Source: an uncultured virus (IMG/VR IMGVR_UViG_3300032167_007427)
Taxonomy: Duplodnaviria > Heunggongvirae > Uroviricota > Caudoviricetes
Reading direction: 5' to 3' (one strand)
DNA length: 20,000 nt
Virus record (IMG/VR): IMGVR_UViG_3300032167_007427
Below are positions 3,990 to 18,758 of this stretch, piece by piece (position 1 is the first letter of the stretch; every line of letters starts with the position of its first letter). The notes below the pieces were generated by a model. It had not been told where the DNA came from. It did not search any database and saw only the letters and a program-made list of their open reading frames with translations. Both the position numbers and the translations under genes were made by a program.

Positions 3990-4373
3990 ATGCAAAAAGA
4001 AAATGAAATCATCGCCCTCCAAAAGCAAGGTTATGGCTATAGACGTATTGCTACTATGCTTGAACTTCCGATAAACAAGGTGCGCTATTTTTGCGAAAAG
4101 AATCCTTATAACTCTAATAATAAAAAGTGTCTTAACTGTGGTATCGCAATCAAAAACACACCACATAAACGTGAAAAGAAGTTCTGTTCAGATAAATGCC
4201 GTATGGATTGGTGGAATTCTCACCCTGAACTTGTAAACCGTAAAGCAATGTATCACCTTATCTGTAGCCATTGCGGTAAACCTTTTGATGCCTACGGAAA
4301 GGCAAACAAAAAATACTGTTCTCGTGCTTGTTATGCTGATGCCAGACGTAAAGGAGGAAGCAACAATGAGTGA
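3990..4373 (+). CDS. HTH plus double zinc-finger DNA-binding protein
   Basis: N-terminal sigma-region-4-like HTH (LQKQGYGYRRIATMLELPINKVR) and two CxxC...CSxxC motifs (CLNC...FCSDKC; CSHC...YCSRAC). Confidence 0.75.
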   Translation: MQKENEIIALQKQGYGYRRIATMLELPINKVRYFCEKNPYNSNNKKCLNCGIAIKNTPHKREKKFCSDKCRMDWWNSHPELVNRKAMYHLICSHCGKPFDAYGKANKKYCSRACYADARRKGGSNNE

Positions 4374-4527
4374 TGAACTCTTCCGTCGCATTCTTCTTTA
4401 TAAAACCACAATGGCTACTATCAAGAAAATGCTTGAAAATGGCTTAATTACTCCCGAAGAATACGCCATAATTGACACAAAAATTGCCGAGAAATATGCC
4501 TTAAATTCGTCTGTTATATATCGCTGA
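4366..4527 (+). CDS. SHOCT-domain microprotein, 53 aa
   Basis: ATG 4366 after RBS aaggagg, overlapping the upstream stop. IKKMLENGLITPEEY is a SHOCT signature. Confidence 0.75.
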   Translation: MSDELFRRILLYKTTMATIKKMLENGLITPEEYAIIDTKIAEKYALNSSVIYR

Positions 4528-4533
4528 TAACCG

Positions 4534-4564
4534 TTGACTTATCAGGGATTTAGAGTGATATATA
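4534..4564 (+). promoter_or_regulatory. Putative sigma-A-like promoter for the recombinase pair
   Basis: TTGACT (4534-4539) and extended TG-a-TATATA (4556-4564). The 19-nt spacer is long. RBS aaggagg follows. Confidence 0.45.
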
Positions 4565-4586
4565 TGATGACAATAAGGAGGTATAT

Positions 4587-5888
4587 ATGGATAGAAATGT
4601 AGAAAGGGTGGTATTCAATACACCTAAAAAGCCAAAGGCAACAAAAGTTGCTGCCTATGCACGTGTTTCAAGTGGCAAGGATGCAATGCTTCATTCCTTA
4701 TCGGCTCAGGTCAGTTATTATTCTAACCTCATTCAAAATCACGAGGGCTGGTTGTATGTTGGAGTTTACAGAGACGAAGGAATAACGGGCACTAAAGAAC
4801 AGAGGAACGGGTTTCAAAGGCTTATGAACGATTGCCGAGCCGGGAAAATTGACCTAATAATAACAAAGAGTATTTCACGCTTTGCACGAAATACAGTCAC
4901 ATTACTTGAAGCGGTTAGAGAGCTCAAATCTTTGGGAATCGGAATACTTTTCGAGGAACAGAACATTAATACCCTCACAGCTGAAGGAGAATTTATGATT
5001 ACAATTCTCGCATCCTATGCTCAAGAGGAGAGCCTATCAGCAAGCGAAAATCAGAAATGGCGTGTAAAGAAAAACTTTGAAGAAGGTAAACCCTGGACGG
5101 GAAAGATGCTCGGTTACCGTTATGATCACGGCACATATAGAGTTATCCCCGAAGAGGCCGAAACTGTTAAACTGATTTTTTCAACCTACCTTAAAGGGAA
5201 AGGGATAATTTCCATTGTAAATATGCTCAACGCCAAAGGAATCCCTTCTCCGAACAGTGAAAAATGGAGTCAAACCACGGTAAGAAAAATACTCAGCCAA
5301 TACACCTATACAGGAAACTTGCTGCTACAGCGATTTTACCGTAATAACCATCTTGAAAAAATCACAATGGTTAATCACGGCGAATTGCCGATGTACCACG
5401 TTGAGGGGTGCCACGAACCTATTATCCCACTTGAAGAATTCACAGCCGTCCAGAATCGCCTTGCAGAACAAGCCGAAAAGTTCAATAAATCCAAAGGCAC
5501 TAAAAAACTATACCCTTTTACAGGACGAGTTGTGTGCGCCGGATGTGGAAAGAACTTCAAAAGAAGGACCACGCCTACTACTGTCACCTGGGTTTGCCCA
5601 ACTTACAATTCACAAGGTAAATCCGCTTGTGATGCAAAACAGATTCCCGAAGAAACACTTATCAAAACATGCAAAGAAGTCCTCGGTGTTGAGGATATTA
5701 CTACGGAGTTGCTCTACAGCCGTTTAACGGCTATACGAGCCGATAAAAACAACACACTAATATTCTGTTTCCGTGACGGAAAAGAAATCGTTAAACGATG
5801 GAAAGACCGTTCACGCTCGGAAAGTTGGACTCCTGAAATGAGAGCCGAGGTAAGCAGACGAAGAAGGGAGAGTATGGTTAATGGCTAA
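4587..5888 (+). CDS. Large serine recombinase 1 (resolvase, recombinase and zinc-ribbon domains; no coiled coil)
   Basis: AYARVSS catalytic Ser motif, DEGITG, ITKSISRFARN, recombinase domain ending HEPII, and CAGC...C...C zinc ribbon. Confidence 0.93.
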   Translation: MDRNVERVVFNTPKKPKATKVAAYARVSSGKDAMLHSLSAQVSYYSNLIQNHEGWLYVGVYRDEGITGTKEQRNGFQRLMNDCRAGKIDLIITKSISRFARNTVTLLEAVRELKSLGIGILFEEQNINTLTAEGEFMITILASYAQEESLSASENQKWRVKKNFEEGKPWTGKMLGYRYDHGTYRVIPEEAETVKLIFSTYLKGKGIISIVNMLNAKGIPSPNSEKWSQTTVRKILSQYTYTGNLLLQRFYRNNHLEKITMVNHGELPMYHVEGCHEPIIPLEEFTAVQNRLAEQAEKFNKSKGTKKLYPFTGRVVCAGCGKNFKRRTTPTTVTWVCPTYNSQGKSACDAKQIPEETLIKTCKEVLGVEDITTELLYSRLTAIRADKNNTLIFCFRDGKEIVKRWKDRSRSESWTPEMRAEVSRRRRESMVNG

Positions 5889-7461
5889 AACCGTCACAAA
5901 GATACCCGCCACGATAAACCCTATTACACGAATGCCCATAATGGGAAGGCGTAAACGCCGTGTTGCGGGATATGCGAGAGTATCCACAGATAAAGATGAA
6001 CAGTTTAGCTCATATGAAGCACAGGTCGATTACTACACAAAATACATACAGGCTAATCCTGAATGGGAGTTTGTCAAGGTTTATACCGATGAGGGCATTT
6101 CAGCAACAAGCACAAAACGCCGAGACGGCTTCAATGAAATGATTAATGATGCGCTTAACGGTAAAATAGACCTCATTGTAACCAAGTCCGTCAGTCGTTT
6201 TGCTCGAAACACGGTCGATAGTTTGACTACAATTCGCAAACTCAAAGAAAAGATGGTCGAGGTCTATTTTGAAAAAGAAAACATATGGACTTTTGAATCT
6301 AAAGGTGAGTTGCTTCTCACAATCATGTCCTCTATTGCACAAGAGGAGAGCCGATCCATCTCCGAAAACATAACCTGGGGTAAAAGGAAAAGCGCATCGG
6401 ACGGAAAAGTCAGCCTTGCATATAAATATTTCCTTGGCTACGATAAAGGCCCCAACGGACTTGTTATAAATGAAGAGCAAGCCGTAATTGTCCGTCGTAT
6501 ATACCGAGATTTCATTGCCGGAAAAACAACTTGGACAATAGCAGAAGAGTTGACTGCCGAGGGTATATTAACTCCCGGAGGTAAAGAACAATGGCGTACA
6601 ACAACCGTTGAAAGCATCCTCACAAACGAGAAATACAAAGGGGCAGCACTTCTACAAAAAACTTTCACGGTTGACTACCTTTCAAAGAAAGTAAAAGTAA
6701 ATGAGGGAGAGGTTCCCCAATATTACGTCGAGGATAGCCACCCCGCCATCATACCCCCTGATGAATGGGATAGGGTTCAAAAGGAAATCGCAAGACGTAG
6801 AAGCCTTGGGCGCAAGTATAGCGGGAACGGCATTTTTGCAACACGCATTGTATGCGGTGAATGCGGTGCATATTATGGGGCAAAGGTATGGAATTCCAAC
6901 GATAAATACCGCCGTGTTGTATGGCAATGCAACGATAAGTTCAAAGGCAAAGGTAAAGATAAATGTACCACTATCCACCTTTCTGAGGATGAAATCAAGC
7001 GTAGATTTATAACCGCATTCAATATCCTTTTTGATAGCAAAGACGAGGTTATTGCAAATTGTGAGATGGTCGCAAGGCTCTTCTCCGACACTACGGATCT
7101 TGACGAAAAGAAGGATACCTTATTACAAGAACTTGAGGTTGTTTCGGAGCTTATTCAAAAGCTGATTGATGAGAACGCTTCTCAGGCACAAGACCAAGGC
7201 GATTATATGGCTCGGTATAACGCCTATGTAAAACGGTACGAGAGTTTCAACGAAAAGTTCAAAACCATAGAACAAGAAATCCTTGTCCGAAAAGGACGAG
7301 CCGATGCCTTTGATGATTTTATAAGGGTCTTTGCCACAGTTGAGGACAAACTTCTTGATTTTGATGACAACCTATGGGTACTTACAATCGATAAAGTAAA
7401 GGTAATGCCGAACGGTGAACTTCGTTTTGTTTTCCAAAACGGAGCAGAAATTATCGCCTGA
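5881..7461 (+). CDS. Large serine recombinase 2 (canonical architecture with coiled coil)
   Basis: GYARVST, DEGIS, VTKSVSRFARN, ILTNEKYKG, HPAII, CGECG...C...C zinc ribbon and a long heptad region. Overlaps LSR1 by 8 nt. Confidence 0.95.
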   Translation: MAKTVTKIPATINPITRMPIMGRRKRRVAGYARVSTDKDEQFSSYEAQVDYYTKYIQANPEWEFVKVYTDEGISATSTKRRDGFNEMINDALNGKIDLIVTKSVSRFARNTVDSLTTIRKLKEKMVEVYFEKENIWTFESKGELLLTIMSSIAQEESRSISENITWGKRKSASDGKVSLAYKYFLGYDKGPNGLVINEEQAVIVRRIYRDFIAGKTTWTIAEELTAEGILTPGGKEQWRTTTVESILTNEKYKGAALLQKTFTVDYLSKKVKVNEGEVPQYYVEDSHPAIIPPDEWDRVQKEIARRRSLGRKYSGNGIFATRIVCGECGAYYGAKVWNSNDKYRRVVWQCNDKFKGKGKDKCTTIHLSEDEIKRRFITAFNILFDSKDEVIANCEMVARLFSDTTDLDEKKDTLLQELEVVSELIQKLIDENASQAQDQGDYMARYNAYVKRYESFNEKFKTIEQEILVRKGRADAFDDFIRVFATVEDKLLDFDDNLWVLTIDKVKVMPNGELRFVFQNGAEIIA

Positions 7462-7472
7462 ACTCAACGTCC

Positions 7473-7509
7473 AAAAAGCTCCTGTGCATTTTCACGCAGG
7501 AGCCTTATT
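7473..7509. terminator. Bidirectional terminator between convergent operons
   Basis: AAAAA-GCTCCTGTG-cattttca-CGCAGGAGC-cttatt: hairpin with a T5 tail on the minus strand. Confidence 0.7.
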
Positions 7510-7511
7510 GG

Positions 7512-8447
7512 TTATTCTTCTTCGTCATTGATTAATCCATCAACTCCCTCGGTATCTTCGTCTCCGATAGTATCATCAATGTCATCGACATCATCGAATA
7601 CAATACTCTCGTAGGCATCGTCATCACCAAAGGTTTCATCCGCTACAAACGACATTTCTTTAGCATACAGTTTATTCATAGAAAGGCGTTGCTCAAGGTT
7701 CTTTTTCTTACCGTTATATGCAATTATCATTGCCTCGCAGACACCTAAAGAACCTGGGCGTCGGTCTTTTGCGTTACGCATTAGTTGCTTGATAGATAAT
7801 GCGCCAACCTTATCTTTGAAAATATCTTCATCAAGGCGACCGCGATATGTTACAACAAGCTTGGCGGTGGCATTCAGAATATTTGCTGCAAAAGAGTTGG
7901 AATCGCCCTCCCAGGCTCCAATACAAAGACGAAGAACACGATTCAAGACGTGATACCCGTATTTAGAATATATGGCCTCCAAGGTTGAAACCGCACAGAT
8001 AGAACCTGGTGCTTTCTTACGAGAAATACGTAATCCATACGATTCTACAAGCCCTTTGATTGTAAGTTGGTCATTATTACCCGCCTCTACATTAGCTGTA
8101 AAAACTTCGTGGGGATTTAGGCTTTTTACAAACTTCTGCTGATTTGCAAAAATATCAGCTTCGTGTTCGTAACATAAGTCATCATAAATCATGCACCAAA
8201 CGGGTGTATCTCTCGAGCCTGATACCATTGCTACAATCTCAATGGTGTGCTGACCATTAAAGACGTAGTTTATGCCGTTTCTTCGACTTACTTTTACGGG
8301 ATTAATTTGATAAAGGTCGAAGTTCTCCGCAGCACGAATAACGTGTTGTTCTGAAAGGCTACGCTGATAATCCTGGTTTGACACAAGATTTTTAATTGGG
8401 ATTTTCTCGAAATAGACATTGGGGACAAATTCCATAAATTCATCCAT
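7512..8447 (-). CDS. ParB/Srx-like N-terminal domain protein (DUF6551-like) with acidic tail
   Basis: L-SNQDYQR, NFD----PVKVSRR----YVFNGQHT (DGQHR-like motif), EADIFANQ. The last ~40 aa are mostly Asp/Glu. Confidence 0.7.
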   Translation of the reverse strand: MDEFMEFVPNVYFEKIPIKNLVSNQDYQRSLSEQHVIRAAENFDLYQINPVKVSRRNGINYVFNGQHTIEIVAMVSGSRDTPVWCMIYDDLCYEHEADIFANQQKFVKSLNPHEVFTANVEAGNNDQLTIKGLVESYGLRISRKKAPGSICAVSTLEAIYSKYGYHVLNRVLRLCIGAWEGDSNSFAANILNATAKLVVTYRGRLDEDIFKDKVGALSIKQLMRNAKDRRPGSLGVCEAMIIAYNGKKKNLEQRLSMNKLYAKEMSFVADETFGDDDAYESIVFDDVDDIDDTIGDEDTEGVDGLINDEEE

Positions 8448-9422
8448 TTAATCATCCTCCTCCGCTTTTAACGCCAACTCATATGCGGTATCGGCGAGTT
8501 CGGTCAAAGCCTCTATCAACCGCTTCCGTGCACCCTTTGAAATGATTTCAAAATCAGTATGTTTTTCAGAACGTTTAATAGAGCTTATCCACGAGGGTAT
8601 CGTTAAAGACAGTTCTGTTATGGATGCGTCGGGGTCGAACGCAGGCATTTCCTTTATACTGGTTGCAGTAGTACCGCTTGGTGCATAAGTAGGCTCACTG
8701 CTTTGGGGCCTCTGTGGCTGATTGCCATACTGAAAATACGGTACTTTAGTTGTGCTCATACGATTGTTAATACGAATGAGCTCCTCGGTTGGCTGTTTAG
8801 CCATACCTACAATGGTTGCGTGTGATAACTTGACTCTGCCGGATAGAATCTTTGGAACAAGTTCAGGTACTTTTGAGCCAATAGCTTCAAGTGCTCTTGT
8901 ATAAATAGCATACTTTTCGACCGTACCAAAGGATATATTATTTTCCTCTGCGATTTTTGTAGCAGTTCGATGTCCGGTGCGGTAACCTCGTGCAAATTTA
9001 CCATTTTCATCACGTGTCACCTCTTCTTCAGTTCCACGCACACGTATTATGTATTGGTTTGAGCCTTTGGGATATTTGAGATGGTTAACATATTTCTCCG
9101 TCTCATATTGCATTCCGATTAGAAATTTACGGGCTTCTTCGGTTATATTCTTTCTCTTTAACTGACGCGAACATATCCAAGCAATCGCTTCTTCTTTACA
9201 TGAAAAGTCTAATTCCTCAATTGAAAAAGGAATGCCAAACTTGTGACATATCGCGTAGCGATTATGCCCGTCTATAATAAAGCCATCCCACACAAGTATG
9301 GGTTCTTTACAGCCCTCTGCTTTTATGCTTTGTTCAAGTGTTAAATACTCCTGACGACGCAATGGGCGGATGAGATTTTTGAAATCTCTATCAGTTTTAA
9401 GAGTTATAATTTTATCTTCCAT
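8448..9422 (-). CDS. ParB-like N-terminal domain protein with downstream HTH
   Basis: LEQSIKAEGCKEPILVWDGFIIDGHNRY (ParB/Srx GxxR motif), QLKRKNIT, and TATKIAEENNISFGTVEKY HTH. RBS ggaggg. Confidence 0.75.
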   Translation of the reverse strand: MEDKIITLKTDRDFKNLIRPLRRQEYLTLEQSIKAEGCKEPILVWDGFIIDGHNRYAICHKFGIPFSIEELDFSCKEEAIAWICSRQLKRKNITEEARKFLIGMQYETEKYVNHLKYPKGSNQYIIRVRGTEEEVTRDENGKFARGYRTGHRTATKIAEENNISFGTVEKYAIYTRALEAIGSKVPELVPKILSGRVKLSHATIVGMAKQPTEELIRINNRMSTTKVPYFQYGNQPQRPQSSEPTYAPSGTTATSIKEMPAFDPDASITELSLTIPSWISSIKRSEKHTDFEIISKGARKRLIEALTELADTAYELALKAEEDD

Positions 9423-9431
9423 AGTCCCTCC

Positions 9432-9797
9432 TTATGACTCAATACGCGTGATTGTATCTAAAGAATATACAACCATTTTCTCAGAGGGAATGAATCTTCC
9501 TGTAATACGATAAGAACAATTTTTTTCGAGTTCTCCGGTAACCTCAAGGAGTTTATTCATAAAGGGTTGACTGTATATTTCGTATGAGTTATCTGACTCC
9601 ATTAAATGCTGTTTTACCCGATGAGCATCTTTCTTCGGCGTTGCATTGTCGTGCGCTTTTACAGCCACAAGTCTTTTAACTGGATTCACCAACAAGTCAA
9701 GATATTTTGGATCGCCAACGGCTCGTATAGTGGATTTATGTATTCGTATGCGGGACTTTTTTAAATCGAATGACATTGTTTCTATATTATCTGACAT
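9432..9797 (-). CDS. Hypothetical protein: minimal stand-alone domain X (121 aa)
   Basis: RBS ggagg; TAATG overlap with the upstream gene. IRIHKSTIRAVG-PKYLDLLVNPVKRLVAVK and YRITG match the LSR3 C-terminal domain. Confidence 0.75.
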   Translation of the reverse strand: MSDNIETMSFDLKKSRIRIHKSTIRAVGDPKYLDLLVNPVKRLVAVKAHDNATPKKDAHRVKQHLMESDNSYEIYSQPFMNKLLEVTGELEKNCSYRITGRFIPSEKMVVYSLDTITRIES

Positions 9798-10558
9798 TAA
9801 TTTGTACCTCCCTCTGTTTCGGATGCGCCGTCAGTTTCAGTCGCATCTCCTTCTTTTTCGTTTTCTTTAACCGCTATAATCGCATAACCGTCAAATATAT
9901 TAATCTGCATTGATTGACGGTGTTCGTTGTACGACAAACCAAACTGATCCTGCCATTCTGCCGGGAATACGGGTGTTCTTGATGTTCTTGGTTTCTGACC
10001 TTCCGTAAAAGTACGCTGATACACCTCGGTAGCCGTCAGGTCAAACGCCAGCAAATATTCATCATTAGCGTGTATAAGCTTTCCGAGTAGCTTGTACCTA
10101 TAATCAGGATTCCACTCCATCATTGTAACCACCTTTGCAAAAAACAGCTTGCAAGTAATCGGCTTCGGTTTGCGTTTTCCTTTATTTGTAGTACTGCACC
10201 ATTGAAAAGAGTCTCGCGCTCCTTCCGGGCAGGGACGAAGAGCGAGTATCTTCTTTTGACGGTTAATAAGCACCTGGGCATAATCCGATGTTGGGAATTT
10301 TGCAAGACAAGCGGTATTAACTTGAAACTTACAATTATTAAAGGTTACTGATGGTTCTCTTAAATGGGCAAAAAACTCACGACGCACTACCTGGAAACCA
10401 TCAAAATCAAAGTCTTCTCCAAGTTCAAAAAGTTCATCGTGTTTGCCGAGCACAAGTGTTGCGTCTGCTGAATCGTTTTCTGTTGTAGGTATATCACCCG
10501 GTTCTTCAACAGATTTCAACAGTTGAGCCAGCGTATTATTTCCGTTATTGTCATTCAT
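9797..10558 (-). CDS. Hypothetical protein carrying domain X, paralogous to the LSR3 C-terminus
   Basis: DFDFDGFQVVRREFF...P-VTF...LIN...ILALR...WNPDYRYKLLG...AFD...PAEW---FG--Y--H-Q aligns with LSR3. RBS aggagg; start abuts the LSR3 stop. Confidence 0.8.
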   Translation of the reverse strand: MNDNNGNNTLAQLLKSVEEPGDIPTTENDSADATLVLGKHDELFELGEDFDFDGFQVVRREFFAHLREPSVTFNNCKFQVNTACLAKFPTSDYAQVLINRQKKILALRPCPEGARDSFQWCSTTNKGKRKPKPITCKLFFAKVVTMMEWNPDYRYKLLGKLIHANDEYLLAFDLTATEVYQRTFTEGQKPRTSRTPVFPAEWQDQFGLSYNEHRQSMQINIFDGYAIIAVKENEKEGDATETDGASETEGGTN

Positions 10559-12454
10559 TTAGTTTACCTCCTGTGGGGACACCGCACTCAACTCACTTTT
10601 AATATAAAGCCTTAAGTCCTCATATCCGGTTACATTCAGCTTTTTACCGGTTTCGTATAGCTGTCCCTCAATACGTAGTTTCCACTCATCTTCGCTTTGA
10701 GCTTCAAGTTCTGCCAGGGTTTGTTCATGCAAATAGTATTGTTTACCGAAATTTGCTGTCCACTCTTTGGGTATACCTCTTATGAGTTTACCTGAGGGCA
10801 TAAAAGGTTGAACTGTTGGCTCTTTGCCGTCTTCTGATGTATGCCCCGGCAGTACATAAGGTTTGAAGAATGCCTCCGTATTTACGGTATCAAAAATATA
10901 AGCAACCTCGGAATCCTGCTCGTACAAAGAACCTGTTATACGGTATTTATAATCAGAGTTCCAACCGAATATCGAAAAGAGAGTTTCACTAAAGGCGGCG
11001 GTAGATATATCTTTAGGAACATAGTTTCCACCCTCGTTATTTGAGCAGATTACTCCTTGTCGGTTATCTTTATCGGTAGTTCGTATAGCGAACATTCGTG
11101 TAATAGGATTAACAAGAAACTCAACTGTGTTTTTCGCACCGAGCTTTCGAGTCACGGTTTTACTGAATTTGATTTTTTTATGCATAAACGTCACAAATGG
11201 TTTCTGCTGTGTATCAAAAAGTTCCGCACGTGCTATTTCAAATCCTCTCATATCGAAGTCACCTGCTTCAACCTCTATCTGTATTTCTTTCGGTTCACTT
11301 GATGAAACAGAAGCTTCATTATCTGTTTGTGCATATATACTCTGTGCTGCTTGGAAATAATCTTGCTCACCAAAAGCTGCCCAACGTGGGTTGATTACAA
11401 CAAATCCTTTCAGTATTCCGCTATCAAGCACTCGAAGTTCAGGCAAGTAGGACTTATTCTTGAACCTCGCATTATCGAGCATTCGTTGTACGGCTATAAA
11501 ATCATCCCTTGAAACAATAGCTTCGTGATGATTAAAATAATGGCTTTGCGGACGATCTCCTCGATTTTTTACAGATTTATGAGTACGAAAGTTCGGTGTG
11601 AATGTTTTTCTTGTCAACACATCACCACAATGCCTTTCATTACGCAAAATCTGCACTATGCTACTCGACGTCCACTTGATATTCCCAAGATAGGATTTGC
11701 GACCGAGAGCGATTAACGCATCTGCTATTTGCTGCGTTGAATAGCCGTAGAGATACATATAAAATACAAGTTTGACCGTTGGGGCCTCGTCAGGGTTAAT
11801 GATAAGCCCTCCTTCGGAATCGTGTTTGAATCCGAGAAGTTTGGGAGTCAGAGGGATACCGTTATCAAGACGCATACGTAGCGATGTTTCCATACTACGG
11901 CTTCGTGTATGCGATTCTTCCTCCGCCATTGTTGCGACAAAGGAAAGTGCCATAGCAGAGTCATCATTCAAGGAGAAAATACATTCTGACTCGAAGAACA
12001 CACCTACCGGGTGCTTCAGTTCGGCAAGTTCACGTACAATACCGATACTTACAAGGATGTTTCTTGCCAAACGTGATACGCTTTTCGTTATTATCAAGTC
12101 AATTTTTCCTGCTCGGCAATCAGCCAGCATCTTCATACATTCCGCACGATTTTCAAGCATAGTACCGCTGATACCCTCATCGGCATAAATCTTAACAAGG
12201 GTCCAATGCGGGTGATGCTTTACAAAATCCTCATAGTATCTTTTTTGGAGTTCGTATGAAGTAGTTTGCCTTACATCATCGGTAGATACGCGAACATAGA
12301 TAGCAACACGCATTGGTGTTTCATTATCATAATAGTCGACCCTTTTCTTTTCCGGTATATATTCATAATTTTCCGGGTCAACCTGTACGTGCATTCGTCT
12401 GCGAGTACGTTCACGTTCTTGTTCTTTTTGGGTCTTCCTACTGTTATCAATCAT
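10559..12454 (-). CDS. Large serine recombinase 3 with atypical C-terminal domain (no zinc ribbon)
   Basis: IYVRVSTDD catalytic motif, DEGISG, ITKSVSRLARN, ILRNERHCGD and HEAIVSRDDF. No CxxC zinc ribbon follows; domain X is found instead (~10721-11275). Confidence 0.9.
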   Translation of the reverse strand: MIDNSRKTQKEQERERTRRRMHVQVDPENYEYIPEKKRVDYYDNETPMRVAIYVRVSTDDVRQTTSYELQKRYYEDFVKHHPHWTLVKIYADEGISGTMLENRAECMKMLADCRAGKIDLIITKSVSRLARNILVSIGIVRELAELKHPVGVFFESECIFSLNDDSAMALSFVATMAEEESHTRSRSMETSLRMRLDNGIPLTPKLLGFKHDSEGGLIINPDEAPTVKLVFYMYLYGYSTQQIADALIALGRKSYLGNIKWTSSSIVQILRNERHCGDVLTRKTFTPNFRTHKSVKNRGDRPQSHYFNHHEAIVSRDDFIAVQRMLDNARFKNKSYLPELRVLDSGILKGFVVINPRWAAFGEQDYFQAAQSIYAQTDNEASVSSSEPKEIQIEVEAGDFDMRGFEIARAELFDTQQKPFVTFMHKKIKFSKTVTRKLGAKNTVEFLVNPITRMFAIRTTDKDNRQGVICSNNEGGNYVPKDISTAAFSETLFSIFGWNSDYKYRITGSLYEQDSEVAYIFDTVNTEAFFKPYVLPGHTSEDGKEPTVQPFMPSGKLIRGIPKEWTANFGKQYYLHEQTLAELEAQSEDEWKLRIEGQLYETGKKLNVTGYEDLRLYIKSELSAVSPQEVN

Positions 12455-13052
12455 GCAATGCCCCCTTTAACTCTTCTTCGCTATCGGGTAACAACTCCCA
12501 ACCGGGATACGGTAAGAAGAAAGAGTCTTTATTATCGTTCTGATAATACGATGCCAATGTGAAGATGTCCTCTGAAATAAAGTAAATACCAATTGGGTGT
12601 TTCTGCTTTGCAAGTATTCTCGAACAGAAAGTAACCTCGTGTATTTTCTTTGATACATTTGAGACTTTTTGCGTAATGATGAGATCCACTTTGCCTTCCA
12701 TAGCATCTGTCAAAAGCCTACTCCATTCGGGAGCATTCTCCATATTAGGTGCTGTAGCTCCCTCATCAATATAAAAGTCAACAAGAGTCCATTTTGGACA
12801 TAATGCAATGGTATCCGCAAACTGTTTTTTGTGATAAGAAAGGTAGTTGTCATATTTCGTCTGATTAAAGTAACGAATATAAATACCTACCTTAAACGGC
12901 ACATTAGTCGCAGGACGTTCACGACGGATACTACCAAGCCAAGCTTTATGCTGTGCTATTTGAATTGCACGGTCAGAGTCGTCTCCAAAGGTTACTGCAA
13001 ACGTGGGCGTTGCAATAGCACTCAATTGATTAAATACTTCTATTTCGTCCAT
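12447..13052 (-). CDS. Resolvase-domain-only protein lacking catalytic residues (pseudo-recombinase), 201 aa
   Basis: Start reassigned to ATG 13052 (RBS ggagg). KVGIYIRYFN, WTLVDFYIDEG, GKVDLIITQKVSNVS and KHPIGIYFISEDIFTL align with LSR3's N-terminal domain, but RVST is RYFN and SRLAR is SNVSK. Confidence 0.8.
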   Translation of the reverse strand: MDEIEVFNQLSAIATPTFAVTFGDDSDRAIQIAQHKAWLGSIRRERPATNVPFKVGIYIRYFNQTKYDNYLSYHKKQFADTIALCPKWTLVDFYIDEGATAPNMENAPEWSRLLTDAMEGKVDLIITQKVSNVSKKIHEVTFCSRILAKQKHPIGIYFISEDIFTLASYYQNDNKDSFFLPYPGWELLPDSEEELKGALHD

Positions 13053-13081
13053 AGTTACCTCCGATTGTATCTTTCTGACCA

Positions 13082-13143
13082 ATTATATCGCCAATCGGGT
13101 AACAATAAAAGTTACCCACAGTCAGGTCGGTGACTGTAGGTAA
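13082..13143 (-). promoter_or_regulatory. Promoter/operator region of the minus-strand recombinase operon
   Basis: Minus-strand TATAAT at 13082-13087 with a poor -35. Overlapping inverted repeats GGGTAAC-N7-GTTACCC (13097-13117) and TTACCCACAGTCA-N6-TGACTGTAGGTAA (13112-13143). Confidence 0.55.
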
Positions 13144-13174
13144 GGATTTATGATAAAAAATATTAATTTACATT

Positions 13175-13204
13175 AAAAAAGAGTGGAAATTCTCATCTCC
13201 ACTC
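13175..13204 (-). terminator. Rho-independent terminator of the leftward XRE gene
   Basis: Minus strand GAGTGGAGAT-GAGA-ATTTCCACTC-TTTTTT, overlapping the stop codon. Confidence 0.8.
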
Positions 13205-13559
13205 ATTCTTCGGTATTTCTTTTTGCTTGTAACGATATTTTAACTTCTTTTGATATTTTCATAATCGCTTCAATCTCGGAGGGGGTACAGTCCGCAAGAA
13301 GCTGTGCATACTCGCTTTGATACAAATCGTTAACTTCGGGGACATTCGGTCGAAGGATAGAATCCGCGGAAACCTGCAAAGCCTCAACAATTTTAACAAA
13401 GGTTGCAAGCCACATTTTTGTTTTTCCAAGTTCTATATCGCTGATGTTTGAGGTTGCAAGGTGTGCTGCAAAACCAAGGTCAGCCTGGCTCATTCCTTTA
13501 GATATGCGAATGGCACGGATACGTTCTCCGATTGCTACATAATCAAATTTCTTTTCCAT
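13203..13559 (-). CDS. XRE-family HTH transcriptional regulator (118 aa)
   Basis: Start reassigned to ATG 13559 (RBS gaggtg). IGERIRAIRISKGMSQADL...ISDIELGK...LQVSADSIL. Confidence 0.9.
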   Translation of the reverse strand: MEKKFDYVAIGERIRAIRISKGMSQADLGFAAHLATSNISDIELGKTKMWLATFVKIVEALQVSADSILRPNVPEVNDLYQSEYAQLLADCTPSEIEAIMKISKEVKISLQAKRNTEE

Positions 13560-13572
13560 TCGCTCACCTCGT

Positions 13573-13666
13573 TTCCCCGATTGGGTATCATTTATGCATA
13601 TTTTATCACCGATAAGGTAACTACAAAATAGCGAGGTCGCTATATTCATAGTTGATGAGGTATAAT
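13573..13666. promoter_or_regulatory. Divergent promoter region with operator-like sites
   Basis: 17-mers TTCCCCGATTGGGTATC (13573-13589) and ATCACCGATAAGGTAAC (13605-13621), perfect inverted repeat ATAGCGA-gg-TCGCTAT (13628-13643), and plus-strand TATAAT (13661-13666). Confidence 0.55.
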
Positions 13667-13698
13667 TTAGGTGATTTTTTTATTAGGAGGACAAAAAT

Positions 13699-14058
13699 AT
13701 GTCACTTAACTACCTTATCATCGGAAAACGAATCAAAGAAGCAAGAAAGAAAAAACATCTTTCACAGGCACAACTATGTGAACGGGTCGATTTATCAGAC
13801 GGATATATCAGTTACATAGAAACCGCAACAAAGTGTGTCAGTCTTGATGTTCTTGTTCGTATTGCTAATGTACTCGAAGTTACCGCAGACGAGCTTCTTG
13901 CAGAGAATTTACTGACCACCAGACAGGCTAACCTTAATGGTGAATTCAGCGATCTGCTCGGTGATTGTAATGCTTACGAAAGGAGAGTGCTTATTGAAAT
14001 AACAAGAGCAACAAAACAGATCTTACGTGAAAATAAACAATTGCATTTGTCGAAGTAA
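13699..14058 (+). CDS. XRE-family HTH transcriptional regulator
   Basis: RBS aggagg. IGKRIKEARKKKHLSQAQL...YISYIE...IANVLEVTADELL. Confidence 0.92.
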   Translation: MSLNYLIIGKRIKEARKKKHLSQAQLCERVDLSDGYISYIETATKCVSLDVLVRIANVLEVTADELLAENLLTTRQANLNGEFSDLLGDCNAYERRVLIEITRATKQILRENKQLHLSK

Positions 14059-14208
14059 TTATAGCGATAACACCGTAGTGATACAACTGACCGATAGTCA
14101 GTACCCTGACCGGCAGTATATTTACCGGTACTTACACTTTGCTCATACTTACATTTTATTTAAAAACCCTTATGAATTCGCACTTTTGCGTTTTCATCAA
14201 TTCTCCCA

Positions 14209-14217
14209 TGATATAAT
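14209..14217 (+). promoter_or_regulatory. Extended -10 promoter of the cargo operon
   Basis: TGATATAAT (TGnTATAAT) 26 nt upstream of the ATG at 14244; RBS ggagg. Confidence 0.6.
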
Positions 14218-14243
14218 TATCCAAATAAAAATCGGAGGTCAAA

Positions 14244-14954
14244 ATGATATACATAACAGGCGATATCCACGGAACTCCCCGGCGCGTGGTAAACTTCGCA
14301 AAAGACGTCCACATTTCACGTAATGATACACTTATAATTCTTGGTGATGTGGGTGCTAATTATTATTTGAACGAACTCGATGAAGAATGCAAACGGCTGT
14401 TAAACTCAATTAAATGTACCGTTTTTTGTATTCACGGCAATCACGAATGCCGTCCTGAACATATACCTGGTTATCACCTTACCGATTGGTGTGGTGGTAA
14501 GGTGTGGATTGAGGACGAATATCCACGTATCCTTTTTGCCAAAGATGGTGAAATCTACGATATCGAGGGACAGAGGTTCCTTGTCATCGGTGGTGCTTAC
14601 AGTATAGATGCTTCTTGGCGTATACGTCGTCACGCAGGATGGTGGAGCGATGAGCAACCTTCGGATATCATCAAAGCCTTCGTAGAAACACAGATTGCTA
14701 ATCACAAATTTGATATTATACTCACCCATACTTGCCCACGAAAATATGAGCCCGTAGAGGTTTTCTTGCCAAACGTAGACCAATCTAACGTTGATAAAAG
14801 CACCGAAGATTGGCTCGACCGTATAGAGGAACAAATCGACTATAAGGCTTGGTACTGCGGTCATTGGCATACCGATAAGAGGATAGATAGGATGCACTTC
14901 TTATTTACATCGTGGGAAACCATAGAAAAGGAGGATAGCGATGAAACATTTTAA
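14244..14954 (+). CDS. Calcineurin-like metallophosphoesterase (I)
   Basis: All five motifs present: GDIHG, LGDVG, HGNHE, THT, CGHWH. Confidence 0.92.
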   Translation: MIYITGDIHGTPRRVVNFAKDVHISRNDTLIILGDVGANYYLNELDEECKRLLNSIKCTVFCIHGNHECRPEHIPGYHLTDWCGGKVWIEDEYPRILFAKDGEIYDIEGQRFLVIGGAYSIDASWRIRRHAGWWSDEQPSDIIKAFVETQIANHKFDIILTHTCPRKYEPVEVFLPNVDQSNVDKSTEDWLDRIEEQIDYKAWYCGHWHTDKRIDRMHFLFTSWETIEKEDSDETF

Positions 14955-16017: not shown

Positions 16018-16155
16018 ATGATAAAAGGTTCTTATACAAGAGATTTTTATATCCTTCCTACTGTAATCATCCACAATGGTGACGGGATTTATACTACCTT
16101 TGAGCTTGCTTGGCTTAAATGGTATGTTGGCTTTATTCGGCATAAAAAGGAGTGA
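16018..16155 (+). CDS. Small hypothetical protein, 45 aa (not in the ORF track)
   Basis: RBS ggagga 4 nt before the ATG. Translates as MIKGSYTRDFYILPTVIIHNGDGIYTTFELAWLKWYVGFIRHKKE*. Fills the gap, and its end overlaps the next gene's RBS. Confidence 0.7.
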   Translation: MIKGSYTRDFYILPTVIIHNGDGIYTTFELAWLKWYVGFIRHKKE

Positions 16156-16160
16156 AATAT

Positions 16161-16874
16161 ATGACTTATGTTCTTTCGGATATTCACGGTAATATGTCCA
16201 ACTTCAAATCAATACTCACACAGATTAATCTTCAACCGGAGGATACTCTATATATTCTTGGTGATGTTATCGACCGATACCCCGATGGTATCCGTATCAT
16301 ACGAATGATAATGACAATGCCCAACGTAAAAATGCTCCTCGGTAATCACGAGCATATGATGCTTCAGACACTAACCACACCCCAACCTGAATTTATAAAC
16401 AAGTGGGAACGTGAATTTTGTCTTTGGTATCGTAATGGCGGTGCCGTTACTCACGAATATTTAAAGCATATACGGAAAGTACAGCGGCAAGAAGTGTTTG
16501 ATTTTCTTAAGGGATTACCCGTCAACTTAGACGTCGAAGTTAACGGTATCAAATACAAGCTTGTTCACGGCTCACCGGTTGAGAATTTCAAAGCTCATTG
16601 GCGTGAATACGCTTCTCCTGAAGAGTTTGCGGTTTGGGAACGTTGGGATCAATATCAGCCTATACCCGAAGGATACACACTCGTATTCGGTCATACGCCT
16701 ACCGTACAGTTTCAATACGAAACTCCTCTGAAAATATGGTTCGGTGATAATGCTATCGGAATTGATTGTGGTGGTGGTTTCTCGGAAAGAAAAAACACCT
16801 ACCACTATAAGGGCAGGCTTGCGTGTTTACGGCTGGATGATATGAAAGAGTTTTACTCCGATACAAAAATATAA
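16161..16874 (+). CDS. Metallophosphoesterase (II), PPP/PphA/lambda-NinI-like Ser/Thr phosphatase type
   Basis: SDIHG, LGDVIDR, LGNHE, W-RNGG, VHG, FGHTP, IGIDCG and LACLRLDD. ATG 16161 fits RBS aaggag better than GTG 16152. Confidence 0.9.
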   Translation: MTYVLSDIHGNMSNFKSILTQINLQPEDTLYILGDVIDRYPDGIRIIRMIMTMPNVKMLLGNHEHMMLQTLTTPQPEFINKWEREFCLWYRNGGAVTHEYLKHIRKVQRQEVFDFLKGLPVNLDVEVNGIKYKLVHGSPVENFKAHWREYASPEEFAVWERWDQYQPIPEGYTLVFGHTPTVQFQYETPLKIWFGDNAIGIDCGGGFSERKNTYHYKGRLACLRLDDMKEFYSDTKI

Positions 16875-16885
16875 AACGAAAGAAG

Positions 16886-18148
16886 GTGAAATTTTTGTAC
16901 GCACCACAATTTGACAATTACATATGGGGCCTTGGAATAAGCCACCGAGGCTATAATAGTGGCGATGTGTATACTGATGAAGCATACCCAATCATTGATG
17001 AAATAATGGCTTTGCTTAAACAGATAACCCCGTGCTATGAAAATGGCTGTCGTGAACTTTGGTTTTGCGTTGAACGAGGCCCCATTGAAGCATATGGTAA
17101 CTACGAAGAACAGCTCGAAGATGGAGATGTTGAGAATTACGAGGAGTTTGTTTCTAATTGGGAACGTGACTATCCCGATGATGAAAAGTGGTATCGCTTC
17201 TACGGACTTGAAACCGATGAAAAATATCAGGCAATCTCCATTAATTACAATTGTGTTATCGAGGTTAGTCCTTATAAGGAGCGAAATGGTTTTCCGTATG
17301 ACGTAACGGAGTTTGTTTCGTTTATAAAAGATAAAGTGATGTTCTGCATACAACAAATCAAGGACGGAATCTACATGGATTATATCCGCCCTCGTATACC
17401 GGATACTCATAAAACAGGTACAATTCTGCAACGGTATTTATGGGAGATTTATCCCGAAAGCAAGACGTCATATTTCGATGGAATAACCGATGCGGACATA
17501 GAAGATTTCTTCACCTATATGTCGCAGCAAGACCATAAAGATTACAAACCCAAGCAACGACTCTCTCATATGACTGCTAACGACTTTTATCGCTATTGTG
17601 CCATTGGGTATAAGGCTATGGGATATGACGGTTGTGAGTTACCCCTTCGTAAGCAGTACGAGAAGCACGCTGACGGGAGAGACGAAGGTCTTGAGGACAT
17701 AGACCCCACTTCACCCGAAGCGTTTCGAGAATGGCTTGTAGAGGGTCGTAAGAGAGGCGGTCACCCTTGGGAAGTTTGCCGTGGCGGTAATTCCACTCAT
17801 ATAGCTCTGTATGTAGGCTTGGATGATGATGGCTATTATCTTAGGCTTGCGGGTTCATCCTATGGAAGAAGCGCCGAAACCATCAAATTCTATCTTGCTT
17901 TACGCAGAAATGGTGTTCCGGTGTATTTGAGCGATGGTGATCATCTTGCCGAGCGTGTACGGGGTGAAGAAAAAGTCGGCATAGTTCCTCAAGGAATTAT
18001 CCCCAAGTATCGTCATAGTGACTTTCCCAATGAGGATATTATATCCTTTTCTAATCTGCCGTATGAAAACCCGGAAGTTGTGGCTTCTCGTTGTGTATGG
18101 CAGGAAATAAAAGAAGTAAAGCTTATCGAGGAGGGGTGTAATGGGTAA
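16886..18148 (+). CDS. Hypothetical protein (420 aa)
   Basis: Long ORF with GTG start, overlapping the next gene by 8 nt. Motif-like segments HADGRDEGL and GGHPWEVCRGGNSTHI. Confidence 0.75.
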   Translation: MKFLYAPQFDNYIWGLGISHRGYNSGDVYTDEAYPIIDEIMALLKQITPCYENGCRELWFCVERGPIEAYGNYEEQLEDGDVENYEEFVSNWERDYPDDEKWYRFYGLETDEKYQAISINYNCVIEVSPYKERNGFPYDVTEFVSFIKDKVMFCIQQIKDGIYMDYIRPRIPDTHKTGTILQRYLWEIYPESKTSYFDGITDADIEDFFTYMSQQDHKDYKPKQRLSHMTANDFYRYCAIGYKAMGYDGCELPLRKQYEKHADGRDEGLEDIDPTSPEAFREWLVEGRKRGGHPWEVCRGGNSTHIALYVGLDDDGYYLRLAGSSYGRSAETIKFYLALRRNGVPVYLSDGDHLAERVRGEEKVGIVPQGIIPKYRHSDFPNEDIISFSNLPYENPEVVASRCVWQEIKEVKLIEEGCNG

Positions 18149-18758
18149 GATATTCTTTACAGCCGATACCCACTTCGGTCATGAAAATGCGATAGGCTTT
18201 GATAACCGTCCGTTTGCTTCCGTTGAGGAAATGGACGAGGAGCTTATCAGACGATGGAACAACAAGGTGGGGAAAGGTGATCTGGTCTACGTTCTCGGCG
18301 ATATGATATGGAAAACACATAATGATGATGCCCCCACACTCATTAAAAAGCTCAATGGTCAAATCATTTTGATTAAGGGAAATCACGACCGTTTTCTTCA
18401 TAATGCAAAGGCTAAGAATGCTCTTGCCGGGGTAAAAGATTACGACGACATTTGTGTAACTCTCGAGGACGGTACAACACGTAGAGTTATCCTTTCACAC
18501 TTTTATATGCCGTTCTATGTAGGGCATCGCTATCAAGCCATTCACCTTCACGGTCATTCGCACAACAGCGAGGAGTGTATGCAGGAAGAACTTATAAAGC
18601 GTACTCTCGTAGCCAACGGCTTTGAGACCCGTGCCTACAACGTCGGCTGTATGCATTGGGACTACGAACCGGTCACCCTTGATGAAATATTACGCTATGA
18701 GGATATGATTACAATGGCAGAGGGGTATTTGAAAGAGATATCCGAAAAAGAAATCTAA
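18141..18758 (+). CDS. Metallophosphoesterase (III), AQ1575/phage phosphoesterase-like
   Basis: ADTHFGH-N, RPF-SVEEMDEELI-RWN, LGDM, KGNHD, SHF, LHGHSH and YNVGC. Confidence 0.9.
   Translation: MGKIFFTADTHFGHENAIGFDNRPFASVEEMDEELIRRWNNKVGKGDLVYVLGDMIWKTHNDDAPTLIKKLNGQIILIKGNHDRFLHNAKAKNALAGVKDYDDICVTLEDGTTRRVILSHFYMPFYVGHRYQAIHLHGHSHNSEECMQEELIKRTLVANGFETRAYNVGCMHWDYEPVTLDEILRYEDMITMAEGYLKEISEKEI

Follow-up and report, generated by a model that had tools for sequence, protein, structure and literature searches.

The 20,000-nt stretch of DNA analysed here (the window) comes from an uncultured virus of the Caudoviricetes (IMG/VR IMGVR_UViG_3300032167_007427) and carries an operon of six genes that abut or overlap, in the order psRes211, LSR3-X, X253, X121, ParB-like and DUF6551 (Table 1). 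The second gene encodes a large serine recombinase, LSR3, in which the catalytic and recombinase domains are followed by a conserved linker, a domain designated X and a partly helical tail; the next two encode free-standing proteins with the same domain. The psRes211 gene overlaps the start of LSR3 by 8 nt, and the start of X121 overlaps the stop of X253 by one base. Upstream, the cassette adjoins a cI/Cro switch, and the cI-like repressor occupies the same position in related loci. On the other side lie the genes of LSR1 and LSR2, which overlap by 8 nt and converge on the operon; a pair of this type is found at the same position in many, not all, relatives.

Table 1. Features of the recombinase cassette and its surroundings (positions in the window; strand "." for features without one)
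Feature	Position	Strand	Basis or remark
LSR1 (433 aa) and LSR2 (526 aa), canonical zinc-ribbon serine recombinases	4587-7461	+	Pfam
Hairpin between convergent DUF6551 and LSR2	7478-7503	.	T-run on minus strand
DUF6551/ParB-fold protein, 311 aa, last operon gene	7512-8447	-	DUF6551, 2.7e-30
ParB-like protein, 324 aa, fifth operon gene	8448-9422	-	PHROG ParB-like families, phrog_21315 2.5e-15
X121, 121 aa, X core alone	9432-9797	-	Homology, charge
X253, 253 aa	9797-10558	-	Homology, AF2, conservation
LSR3, large serine recombinase, 631 aa	10559-12454	-	ORF, Pfam
Domain X copy 1, LSR3 residues ~399-580	10715-11260	-	Homology to both small ORFs, AF2
psRes211, free-standing resolvase-domain paralogue without catalytic Ser/Arg	12447-13082	-	Resolvase, 5.4e-5
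Palindrome, candidate operator	13116-13139	.	Lies ~46 nt before psRes211, past the repressor's terminator
cI-like HTH repressor, upstream of operon	13203-13649	-	HTH_3
Cro-like HTH gene, divergent	13699-14058	+	Part of cI/Cro switch

The product of the first gene is closest to the catalytic domain of LSR3 (3e-28, against 3e-18 for LSR2 and 2e-15 for LSR1). When 103 non-redundant homologues are aligned with LSR1-3, the catalytic Ser proves to be missing or exchanged for another residue, N and K stand in for the two Arg, and these non-catalytic replacements are at least 90% conserved among the homologues. By its sequence, psRes211 is a resolvase-domain pseudoenzyme conserved across the family. 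As for the last gene, the accessible text of a preprint describes binding of ATP or CTP by DUF6551 ParB-fold phage proteins.

Three copies of one domain

The sequence-only reading had proposed that a single unnamed domain is common to the LSR3 C-terminus and the 253- and 121-aa ORFs, and homology searches bear this out. BLASTP aligns LSR3 residues 399-580 with residues 49-217 of X253 (E 6e-21, 26% identity) and residues 427-524 with residues 16-116 of X121 (E 3e-9, 27% identity). Profiles built exclusively from relatives at other loci cross-match all three: the X253 HMM recovers LSR3 at 7e-27 and X121 at 1e-5, the X121 HMM recovers LSR3 at 1.5e-11 and X253 at 2.2e-7, and none of 900 shuffled sequences scores at E<=10. 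HHalign of two family alignments, a comparison that bears on X253 and X121, returns E 8e-7 with a probability of 91.6%. The span originally given for the three copies, 9432-11275, needs correction at its LSR3 end, where the domain covers about 10715-11260. X121 had been described as the core only; the whole beta1-beta8 core is indeed present in it, and all that the alignment shows to be absent is the segment DFDxxGF...EFF at the N-terminus and the extension PxxWxxxFG at the C-terminus. X is a core of about 120 residues, reaching about 180 residues with its N- and C-terminal extensions.

The resemblance might be due to chance, or the small ORFs might be functionless decaying duplicates, and the direct BLASTP comparison of the 253- and 121-aa ORFs, which is not significant (E 6.3), could be read in this way. 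The HMM cross-matches (1e-5 to 7e-27, with no shuffled sequence matching) argue otherwise, as do the strong conservation of X253 and the fact that almost all of 160 loci retain both small ORFs, intact and in position; we regard this explanation as refuted, with a negligible probability left to it.

The domain proved unnamed, as had been claimed. Pfam, NCBIfam and PHROGs give no match at E<=0.1 except for one meaningless match at 0.034, and a profile search against PDB sequences returns nothing at E<=10. An Atlas search retrieves nothing but unnamed viral clusters for X253 and no match for X121, and the X genes in the GenBank phage records examined are all labelled "hypothetical protein". In literature searches on Heliusvirales, zinc-ribbon-less large serine recombinases, DUF6551 and RDFs, neither X nor its operon came up. 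The domain is nonetheless abundant, with at least 2,894 representatives at 50% identity and at least 1,314 clusters of X-bearing recombinases.

The copies differ in charge. In LSR3, X has a net charge of -1 and a pI of 6.4. In X253, where the domain extends over residues ~49-220 (nt ~9899-10414), the core has a net charge of +7 and a pI of 9.2 and is flanked on both sides by acidic, poorly conserved tails (-9 and -7). X121 is basic as well (pI 9.2), and the K13, K14, R16, R18 and H20 of its basic hairpin are invariant among 19 sequences. Conserved basic hairpins or loops with Lys/Arg clusters are common to the X253 core and X121. X253 is under very strong conservation, as judged from 128 sequences.

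Predicted fold of domain X

X had been described as beta-rich, with a strand-strand-helix-strand-strand pattern. This pattern occurs twice in each of two independent AF2 models, those of LSR3 and X253, which share a (bb-a-bb)x2 core with the same order of strands and helices. The core is modelled at a pLDDT of about 88-95 in LSR3 (residues 414-530) and above 90 in X253 (mean over the chain 82.7). When one half of X is compared with the other by hhalign, the probability is 0.1-0.3%, so that an internal duplication finds no sequence support.

The further idea of an MraZ- or B3-like barrel is borne out only weakly. For both models MraZ is the top match among solved structures, albeit a weak one (1n0e, 9sz7, 9qlg, 9r4j; 97-100 residues aligned). 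Like the modelled core of X, the AbrB/MazE/MraZ-like double-split barrel of MraZ consists of two beta-beta-alpha-beta-beta units in a single chain, and nearly the whole MraZ chain is aligned; MraZ binds promoter DNA according to the titles of these PDB entries. Against this, no Foldseek match to the PDB reaches E<=0.001, comparison of X alignments with a 30-sequence MraZ alignment gives hhalign probabilities of 0.1-0.3%, and neither the MraZ nor the SpoVT-AbrB family of Pfam matches X at E<=0.1. The rows for MvaI and PCNA at the top of the Foldseek output, with a TM of about 0.1, are noise. Among the phage proteins of BFVD, the X core is resembled by Gp105 of Lactococcus phage KSY1, A0A142F1T0 of Bacillus phage Mgbh1 and A0A7U0GBQ4 of Klebsiella phage FBKp24 (113-129 residues, Foldseek E 1.7e-4 to 1.9e-2, TM over the target 0.56-0.60). 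They differ from X in sequence (13-18% identity) and have neither a known recombinase context nor a known function.

Domain X in place of the zinc ribbon

Canonical large serine recombinases and integrases, such as those of phiC31, Bxb1 and A118/LI and SprA of SPbeta, begin with a resolvase domain bearing an invariant Ser, which is followed by a recombinase domain. LSR3 shares this arrangement (Resolvase 50-191, E 1.8e-21; Recombinase, PF07508, 221-327, E 2.5e-21) and, like them, is encoded in the lysogeny region of a temperate phage. It is 36% identical to LSR2 over residues 49-336 (E 3e-52), and its catalytic residues, S57, R128 and R131 among others, are invariant across 22 homologues. With both domains intact, LSR3 is probably an active recombinase that belongs to the lysogeny module of clostridial prophages of the Ca. 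Heliusvirales type.

Beyond residue 336, where the homology to LSR2 stops, LSR3 departs from the canonical enzymes, as X stands where these have the zinc ribbon with its embedded coiled-coil. LSR1 and LSR2 combine the Pfam domains Resolvase and Recombinase with Zn_ribbon_recom (PF13408; 3e-11 in LSR1, 1.1e-8 in LSR2), whereas LSR3 gives no match to the latter at E<=0.1. The earlier claim that no CxxC follows its recombinase domain holds, since residues 330-631 contain a single Cys, and positionally X does replace the zinc ribbon. After X, the AF2 model of residues 325-631 has only short helices at 571-585 and 611-623, at low pLDDT. As far as can be told from sequence comparison, X has taken the place of the zinc ribbon and coiled-coil in one clade of large serine recombinases. 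LSR3 is also unlike the canonical enzymes in that free-standing paralogues of both its catalytic domain and X are encoded around it.

Conservation of the cassette

Nearly every one of 160 related loci, clostridial prophages of the Ca. Heliusvirales type, retains the operon. Counting loci beside an X253 homologue that have room for the gene in question, LSR3-X precedes X253 in 66/66 viral and 72/72 genome loci and X121 follows it in 80/80 and 78/80, respectively; the ParB-like gene is present in 74/75 and 72/73, and the DUF6551 gene in 70/71 and 68/68. The same cassette surrounds a distant X-bearing recombinase of 31% identity. In some genomes (loci L109, L123 and L153) it directly abuts host genes, and in one complete relative genome phage structural genes are absent within 20 kb on either side of it. 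Defence and toxin cargo (HipA, AAA_21, Fic) accumulates beside the cassette in relatives.

Mirror-tree partial correlations across 97 distinct cassettes are 0.60 for psRes211 and the LSR3 catalytic domain, 0.47 for X of LSR3 and X253, 0.39 for X253 and X121, and 0.33 for X121 and the ParB-like protein. These correlations between neighbours follow the gene order and are therefore explicable by linkage alone; the sole non-adjacent correlation is that of DUF6551 with X of LSR3 (0.42).

The accessible part of the Heliusvirales paper calls the lineage widespread, and that of another study reports it as the most prevalent family-level cluster of its cohort. The words "recombinase", "integrase", "lysogen" and "ParB" do not occur in the main text of the Heliusvirales paper.

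Palindrome, hairpin and candidate recombination sites

The palindrome upstream of psRes211 overlaps a -35-like TTGAC. It is present in one copy in the window, where a second copy was searched for, and in none of 200 shuffles; among the intergenic regions of relatives, 36 of 76 distinct ones carry a palindrome with a GTCA..TGAC core at the corresponding position. A search of positions 4300-14300 found no repeat pair suited as recombination sites, and the long inverted repeat found there merely reflects the coding homology of LSR1 and LSR3. No att site was found. The hairpin between DUF6551 and LSR2, just after which the homology among close relatives breaks, was considered as attP and rejected: it behaves as an ordinary terminator across 105 distinct downstream regions, and the shared loop motif is present in only 10 of the 76 regions that have a hairpin. 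Relatives mostly possess a hairpin just after DUF6551, often with a T-run, and in the window it is likely a bidirectional terminator.

Possible functions of domain X

Our preferred interpretation, to which we give slightly less than an even chance, is that X handles site recognition or complex assembly for LSR3, with X253 and X121 co-acting as accessory factors. X would be the module by which LSR3 recognizes the outer part of its sites, assembles the synaptic complex, or both. The two X proteins, which are basic, presumably co-transcribed and always inherited together, would take part in the reaction of LSR3: they might bind the DNA that it binds or DNA next to it, or they might dock on its near-neutral X. 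In this way they would provide the control over synapsis and direction for which canonical enzymes depend on the coiled-coil and an RDF. For the catalytic domain, the matching role might fall to psRes211, which is catalytically dead, and the two ParB-fold proteins could be NTP-dependent DNA-binding partners. The match to MraZ, a DNA-binding factor, is counted in support, weak as it is; the X of LSR3 is not basic, which is odd for a DNA-binding domain and counts against this interpretation. LSR1 and LSR2 next door may be the real integrases. A bolder and improbable version sees a "disassembled" machine, in which LSR3 would work only as a hetero-complex with free-standing paralogues of both its ends, namely psRes211 with its dead catalytic domain and the X domains of X253 and X121, which would contribute the affinity for DNA. 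Direction would be switched by X-X contacts instead of the coiled-coil, and loading or gating of the complex would fall to the two ParB-fold NTPases.

The near-neutral X of LSR3 would be easier to reconcile with a purely protein-protein module, a rather unlikely alternative in which X253 and X121 would be decoys or caps that keep the recombinase inactive or active by binding the X of LSR3 or one another. Such an anti-recombinase or dominant-negative switch would leave DNA recognition to the recombinase domain and the ParB-fold proteins. Dominant-negative regulators are often paralogues of the enzyme's own domain, as the free copies are; psRes211 adds a dead paralogue of the other end of the enzyme, its catalytic domain, and the X253 tails are acidic. 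The basic cores of X253 and X121, with their conserved Lys/Arg clusters, speak against it, as does the DNA-binding nature of the closest structural look-alikes, weak as these matches are. In another reading, X253, X121 or both would be MraZ/AbrB-style transcription factors of the operon or the lysis-lysogeny switch, acting for example at the palindrome upstream of psRes211 and sharing ancestry with the LSR3 C-terminus but not its reaction. In favour of this are the small size and basic character of the two proteins, the leading place of MraZ among the structural matches, and the palindrome, which is unique in the window, has counterparts in relatives and lies over the -35-like motif. The palindrome could equally be the operator of the adjoining cI-like repressor, the MraZ likeness comes without sequence support, and the constant position of two copies directly behind an X-bearing recombinase would go unexplained; we consider this role unlikely. 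A similarly low probability attaches to a maintenance or conflict module in place of an integration module: multimer resolution or inversion by LSR3, segregation by ParB-fold clamps, or defence or exclusion, with X serving whichever of these tasks it is. The occurrence of the cassette in islands lacking phage structural genes means that its job may not be phage integration, for which the canonical LSR1 and LSR2 are available; two ParB-fold genes always follow, and there is the cargo found in relatives. On the other hand, there is no ParA, the window yielded no repeated site pair, and a place beside the repressor, at a prophage edge abutting host genes, is where an integrase classically sits.

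Genome engineering relies heavily on serine integrases, whose choice of sites and one-way action are attributed to the zinc ribbon, the coiled-coil and RDFs. The latter (phiC31 gp3, SPbeta SprB, Bxb1 gp47) are small phage proteins thought to set direction via the integrase C-terminal region. Known RDFs are, to our knowledge, not paralogues of a domain of their own integrase, and act through the zinc ribbon and coiled-coil. X253 and X121 are likewise small and phage-encoded but, unlike RDFs, are paralogous to a domain of the recombinase beside them, and LSR3 has no zinc ribbon and apparently no coiled-coil; we hypothesize that X253 or X121 might have RDF activity. A large natural clade appears to have swapped the zinc-ribbon domain for the undescribed X while keeping satellite copies of its own domains, and free-standing X copies beside an X-bearing recombinase point to an unstudied control of DNA integration. 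Should site recognition or direction depend on X and its copies, they would represent a second, independent solution to directionality, might yield recombinases that follow new targeting rules, and would also explain a conserved, wholly unannotated block of Ca. Heliusvirales prophages. If true, the disassembled machine would mean a new kind of directionality control in site-specific recombination, used by a phage lineage that ranks among the most prevalent in the human gut.

Three serine recombinases per mobile element are also known from the triplets of streptococcal ICEs, where, in the accessible part of the report (PMC4701971), 10 of 42 serine integrases lack a Pfam zinc ribbon. The triplet genes are described there as adjacent and co-oriented at the element end, whereas here the canonical pair converges on a separate operon.

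Contigs assembled from four public runs, of 24 listed, contain no informative joints. One RNA-library run yielded near-identical short contigs at 9168-9415 and 12217-12463, which do not prove transcription. DNA contigs from all three public DNA runs examined bridge the junction between LSR2 and DUF6551.

Domain X in LSR3 and in its free-standing neighbours

Our results confirm that X is a new domain family, that it is widespread, and that in one clade of serine recombinases it takes the place of the zinc-ribbon/coiled-coil domain. They also confirm that a conserved prophage operon keeps three copies of X alongside a dead catalytic-domain copy. The proposal of the sequence-only reading that one domain recurs in three consecutive genes is borne out by BLASTP, in which residues 399-580 of the 631-aa recombinase LSR3 align with residues 49-217 of the 253-aa protein X253 (E 6e-21), and LSR3 residues 427-524 with residues 16-116 of the 121-aa protein X121 (E 3e-9). 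HMMs built solely from relatives in other loci cross-match the X proteins of the window with E-values from 1e-5 to 7e-27, and shuffled control sequences never scored (0/900). Direct BLASTP of X253 against X121 gives no match; the HHalign comparison that had been suggested as a check matches their family alignments (91.6%, E 8e-7). The mixed alignment has a single core common to the three proteins. LSR3 and X253 carry a DFDxxGF...EFF segment before this core and a PxxWxxxFG segment after it, both absent from X121, which consists of the entire core, as its earlier description as "core only" had it. Judging from the alignment, X121 is probably equivalent to the other copies.

The Resolvase and Recombinase domains of Pfam are present in LSR3 and in the neighbouring canonical recombinases LSR1 and LSR2, and Zn_ribbon_recom in LSR1 and LSR2 only. 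Identity between LSR3 and LSR2 is 36% over LSR3 residues 49-336, after which homology ends, and residues 330-631 of LSR3 contain a single Cys; the replacement of the LSR3 zinc ribbon by X, claimed earlier, thus holds as far as position goes. PDB sequence matches of LSR3 are confined to its first 344 residues, those to recombinases ending by residue 199, and LSR zinc-ribbon structures are absent from all structural match lists for X. With catalytic Ser and Arg invariant in 22 homologues, LSR3 looks like an active recombinase. In the 211-aa resolvase-domain protein psRes211, the nucleophilic Ser and two catalytic Arg are replaced, and the replacement residues are at least 90% conserved among 103 non-redundant homologues. 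The catalytic domain of LSR3 is the best match of the psRes211 HMM (3e-28), ahead of LSR2 (3e-18) and LSR1 (2e-15); both ends of LSR3 therefore have free-standing paralogues in one operon. The psRes211 protein appears to be a regulator or a pseudo-enzyme subunit.

Predicted fold and novelty of X

The AlphaFold2 model of X253 (75-sequence alignment) has a mean pLDDT of 82.7, with residues of about 45-220 mostly above 90, and a predicted element order of b-b-a-b-b / b-b-a-b-b followed by an extra strand and helix. The model of LSR3 residues 325-631 repeats this order, with the X core at about 88-95; a conserved linker (about 335-375) is confidently folded and the helices after X are of low confidence. 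The two copies thus appear alike in predicted element order. No internal repeat is detectable in X. Foldseek of the X models against PDB found nothing, and the structurally similar small phage proteins in BFVD are all uncharacterised. An hhalign comparison with a MraZ alignment from 30 Clostridia genomes gives 0.1%. The likeness to AbrB/MraZ-type barrels proposed in the sequence-only reading survives as a fair lead but not as a result; tentatively, the predicted fold would be at best a distant cousin of these barrels.

X has no match at E ≤ 0.1 in Pfam, NCBIfam or PHROGs save one meaningless 0.034, its profile has none at E ≤ 10 among PDB sequences, and its matches in the Atlas are unnamed viral clusters only. 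All annotated matches (16/16) are labelled "hypothetical protein". Full-text searching turned up no account of X or its operon, and the words recombinase, integrase, lysogen and ParB are all absent from the main text of PMC11283538, on Heliusvirales. We read X as a new sequence family. Searched with a profile, 1.84 billion representatives yielded 2,894 matches at E ≤ 0.001, of which 1,498 passed E ≤ 1e-10; a word-indexed search returned at least 2,149 clusters resembling X253 and no fewer than 1,314 X-bearing LSRs. Twenty of the listed representatives, mostly longer ones, were scanned with Pfam and comprise 3 full LSRs, 6 LSR fragments, 9 proteins without a Pfam domain and 2 odd fusions (Lar_N+X and X+CysS_C). 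The proteins P0327 and P0317, gene calls joining X to a lactate-racemase N-domain or a cysteinyl-tRNA-ligase C-terminus, may be chimeric calls or ORFs born at insertion junctions.

A conserved prophage operon

The six minus-strand ORFs from psRes211 to DUF6551 abut or overlap in the window. A siphovirus tail gene and an amidase-LysM endolysin head towards them on the plus strand; together with the cI-like and Cro-like genes and LSR1/LSR2, these identify the window as the lysis/lysogeny region of a temperate phage.

Coordinates of features in the window and in related loci
Feature	Coordinates	Strand	Remarks
LSR1, canonical serine recombinase	4587-5888	plus	Pfam; heads towards operon
LSR2, canonical serine recombinase	5881-7461	plus	Pfam; heads towards operon
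DUF6551, 311-aa ORF	7512-8447	minus	window ORF
ParB-like, 324-aa ORF	8448-9422	minus	window ORF
X121, 121-aa ORF	9432-9797	minus	window ORF
X253, 253-aa ORF	9797-10558	minus	window ORF
LSR3, 631 aa	10559-12454	minus	window ORF
psRes211, 211-aa ORF	12447-13082	minus	window ORF
Palindrome	13116-13139		window
cI-like HTH gene	13203-13649	minus	upstream of operon, same strand
Cro-like gene	13699-14058		divergent
Metallophosphoesterase paralogues	14244-14954, 16152-16874, 18141-18758	plus	window
Segments matched by X20 contigs	9168-9415, 12217-12463		window
Junction cargo, locus L142	13241-14470
Junction cargo, loci L146/L156/L158	about 13000-14400
Junction cargo, locus L092	12978-13916
Junction cargo, locus L125	13078-15215
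Cassette with two HTH genes, locus L109	about 5100-13400

The closest annotated relatives are Ca. Heliusvirales phages of Blautia, Coprococcus, Faecalimonas, Agathobacter, Dorea and others, and one annotated phage record inspected has the gene order of the window. The order repressor - psRes211 - LSR3-X - X253 - X121 - ParB-like - DUF6551 is near-invariant across 80 IMG/VR and 80 genome loci; these were gathered via the X253 family, which skews the set to relatives sharing 53% identity or more. Among loci with room, X121 follows X253 in 80/80 IMG/VR and 78/80 genome loci, and LSR3-X precedes it in 66/66 and 72/72; the ParB-like gene is found in 74/75 and 72/73, DUF6551 in 70/71 and 68/68, and psRes211 in 59/61 and 68/69. 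The same five-gene cassette, without psRes211, surrounds a distant LSR-X in locus L204 (31% identity to the C-terminal LSR3 segment of the window, alignment A6). The Blautia phage record is likewise without psRes211. Hosts by record title span Clostridia (Oscillospiraceae, Christensenellaceae, Lachnospiraceae, Anaerotignum, Flavonifractor, Neglectibacter and others), and a relative is encoded in 218 stretches of a one-genome-per-species collection.

A unique palindrome lies behind the terminator of the repressor, upstream of the operon; it overlaps a -35-like box and is a candidate operator. Palindromes with a GTCA..TGAC core occupy the same place in 36/76 distinct related intergenic regions, and their perfect arms are lineage-specific and reach up to 16 bp. 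Three calcineurin-like metallophosphoesterase paralogues stand in the early region just beyond the Cro-like gene, and in 44/53 genome loci with room, homologues of early genes stand upstream of cro. Two segments of the operon have near-identical short contigs (1 and 0 mismatches) in one metatranscriptome-library run (X20), which agrees with operon expression without proving it, as there may be DNA carry-over.

Possible roles of the X copies

The X253 core is basic (net +7, pI 9.2) and very strongly conserved, with acidic, variable flanking tails; X121 is basic too, its Lys/Arg-rich first hairpin being invariant, and the X of LSR3 is near neutral. The function we put forward is a proposal: the free copies would bring or modulate DNA contacts, and the X of LSR3 would act as a docking or assembly module. 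The pattern of charge and conservation fits this model, and also agrees with one in which the free copies are pure decoys. Evolutionary-distance correlations between cassette genes track gene order and are therefore unusable as evidence. The only strong non-adjacent partial correlation (0.42, 97 distinct cassettes) is between DUF6551 and the X part of LSR3, and may point to a functional tie or be noise. A preprint reports binding of CTP or ATP by DUF6551 ParB-fold phage proteins (bioRxiv 10.1101/2025.10.10.680097). Cysteines C84, C110 and C121 of X253 are at least 90% conserved and C136 at least 70%; the four are peculiar to the X253 family and may form a metal site. They are absent from LSR3-X and X121, except that C121 aligns with the sole Cys of LSR3.

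The cassette as a separable module

The region past DUF6551 was surveyed in the 52 genome loci whose downstream sequence reaches 4 kb or more. An LSR follows within 1.5 kb, as in the window, in 21/52, and at 1.5-5 kb in 13/52, where the scanned intervening ORFs are HipA or AAA_21-type proteins; a lysin follows in 1/52. The remaining 17 have neither, and include loci with Fic, RNase III+WYL, ArdA/methylase or host-type genes after DUF6551. Ordinary host genes stand about a kilobase or more past DUF6551 in two loci (an ABC transporter in L123; P-II and citrate synthase in L153) and on both sides of the cassette in an Anaerotignum neopropionicum contig (L109). On one complete chromosome, from Oscillospiraceae, the 20 kb to either side of the cassette are free of phage structural genes. 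Given the variable sequence past DUF6551 and the abutting host genes, the cassette is a separable module, often found at the edge of the element or close to it; no att sites were located.

The junction between DUF6551 and the LSR pair measures 50 nt in the window but is a cargo hot-spot in relatives, taking in a HipA-like kinase, an AAA_21/AbiEii-like ATPase, Fic, RNase III + WYL, and ArdA + C5 methylase. In L109, with no phage around, the cassette and its two HTH genes stand alone among host genes: nitronate monooxygenase and amino-acid permease genes to one side, NRPS and MFS genes to the other. The L109 cassette is thus a remnant or else an element complete in itself. Four IMG/VR loci (L205-L208) contain three adjacent co-oriented serine recombinase genes (557, 551 and 518 aa in L206, for example). 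These runs resemble the serine-integrase triplets of streptococcal ICEs, where, according to PMC4701971, 10/42 serine integrases are without the Pfam zinc ribbon.
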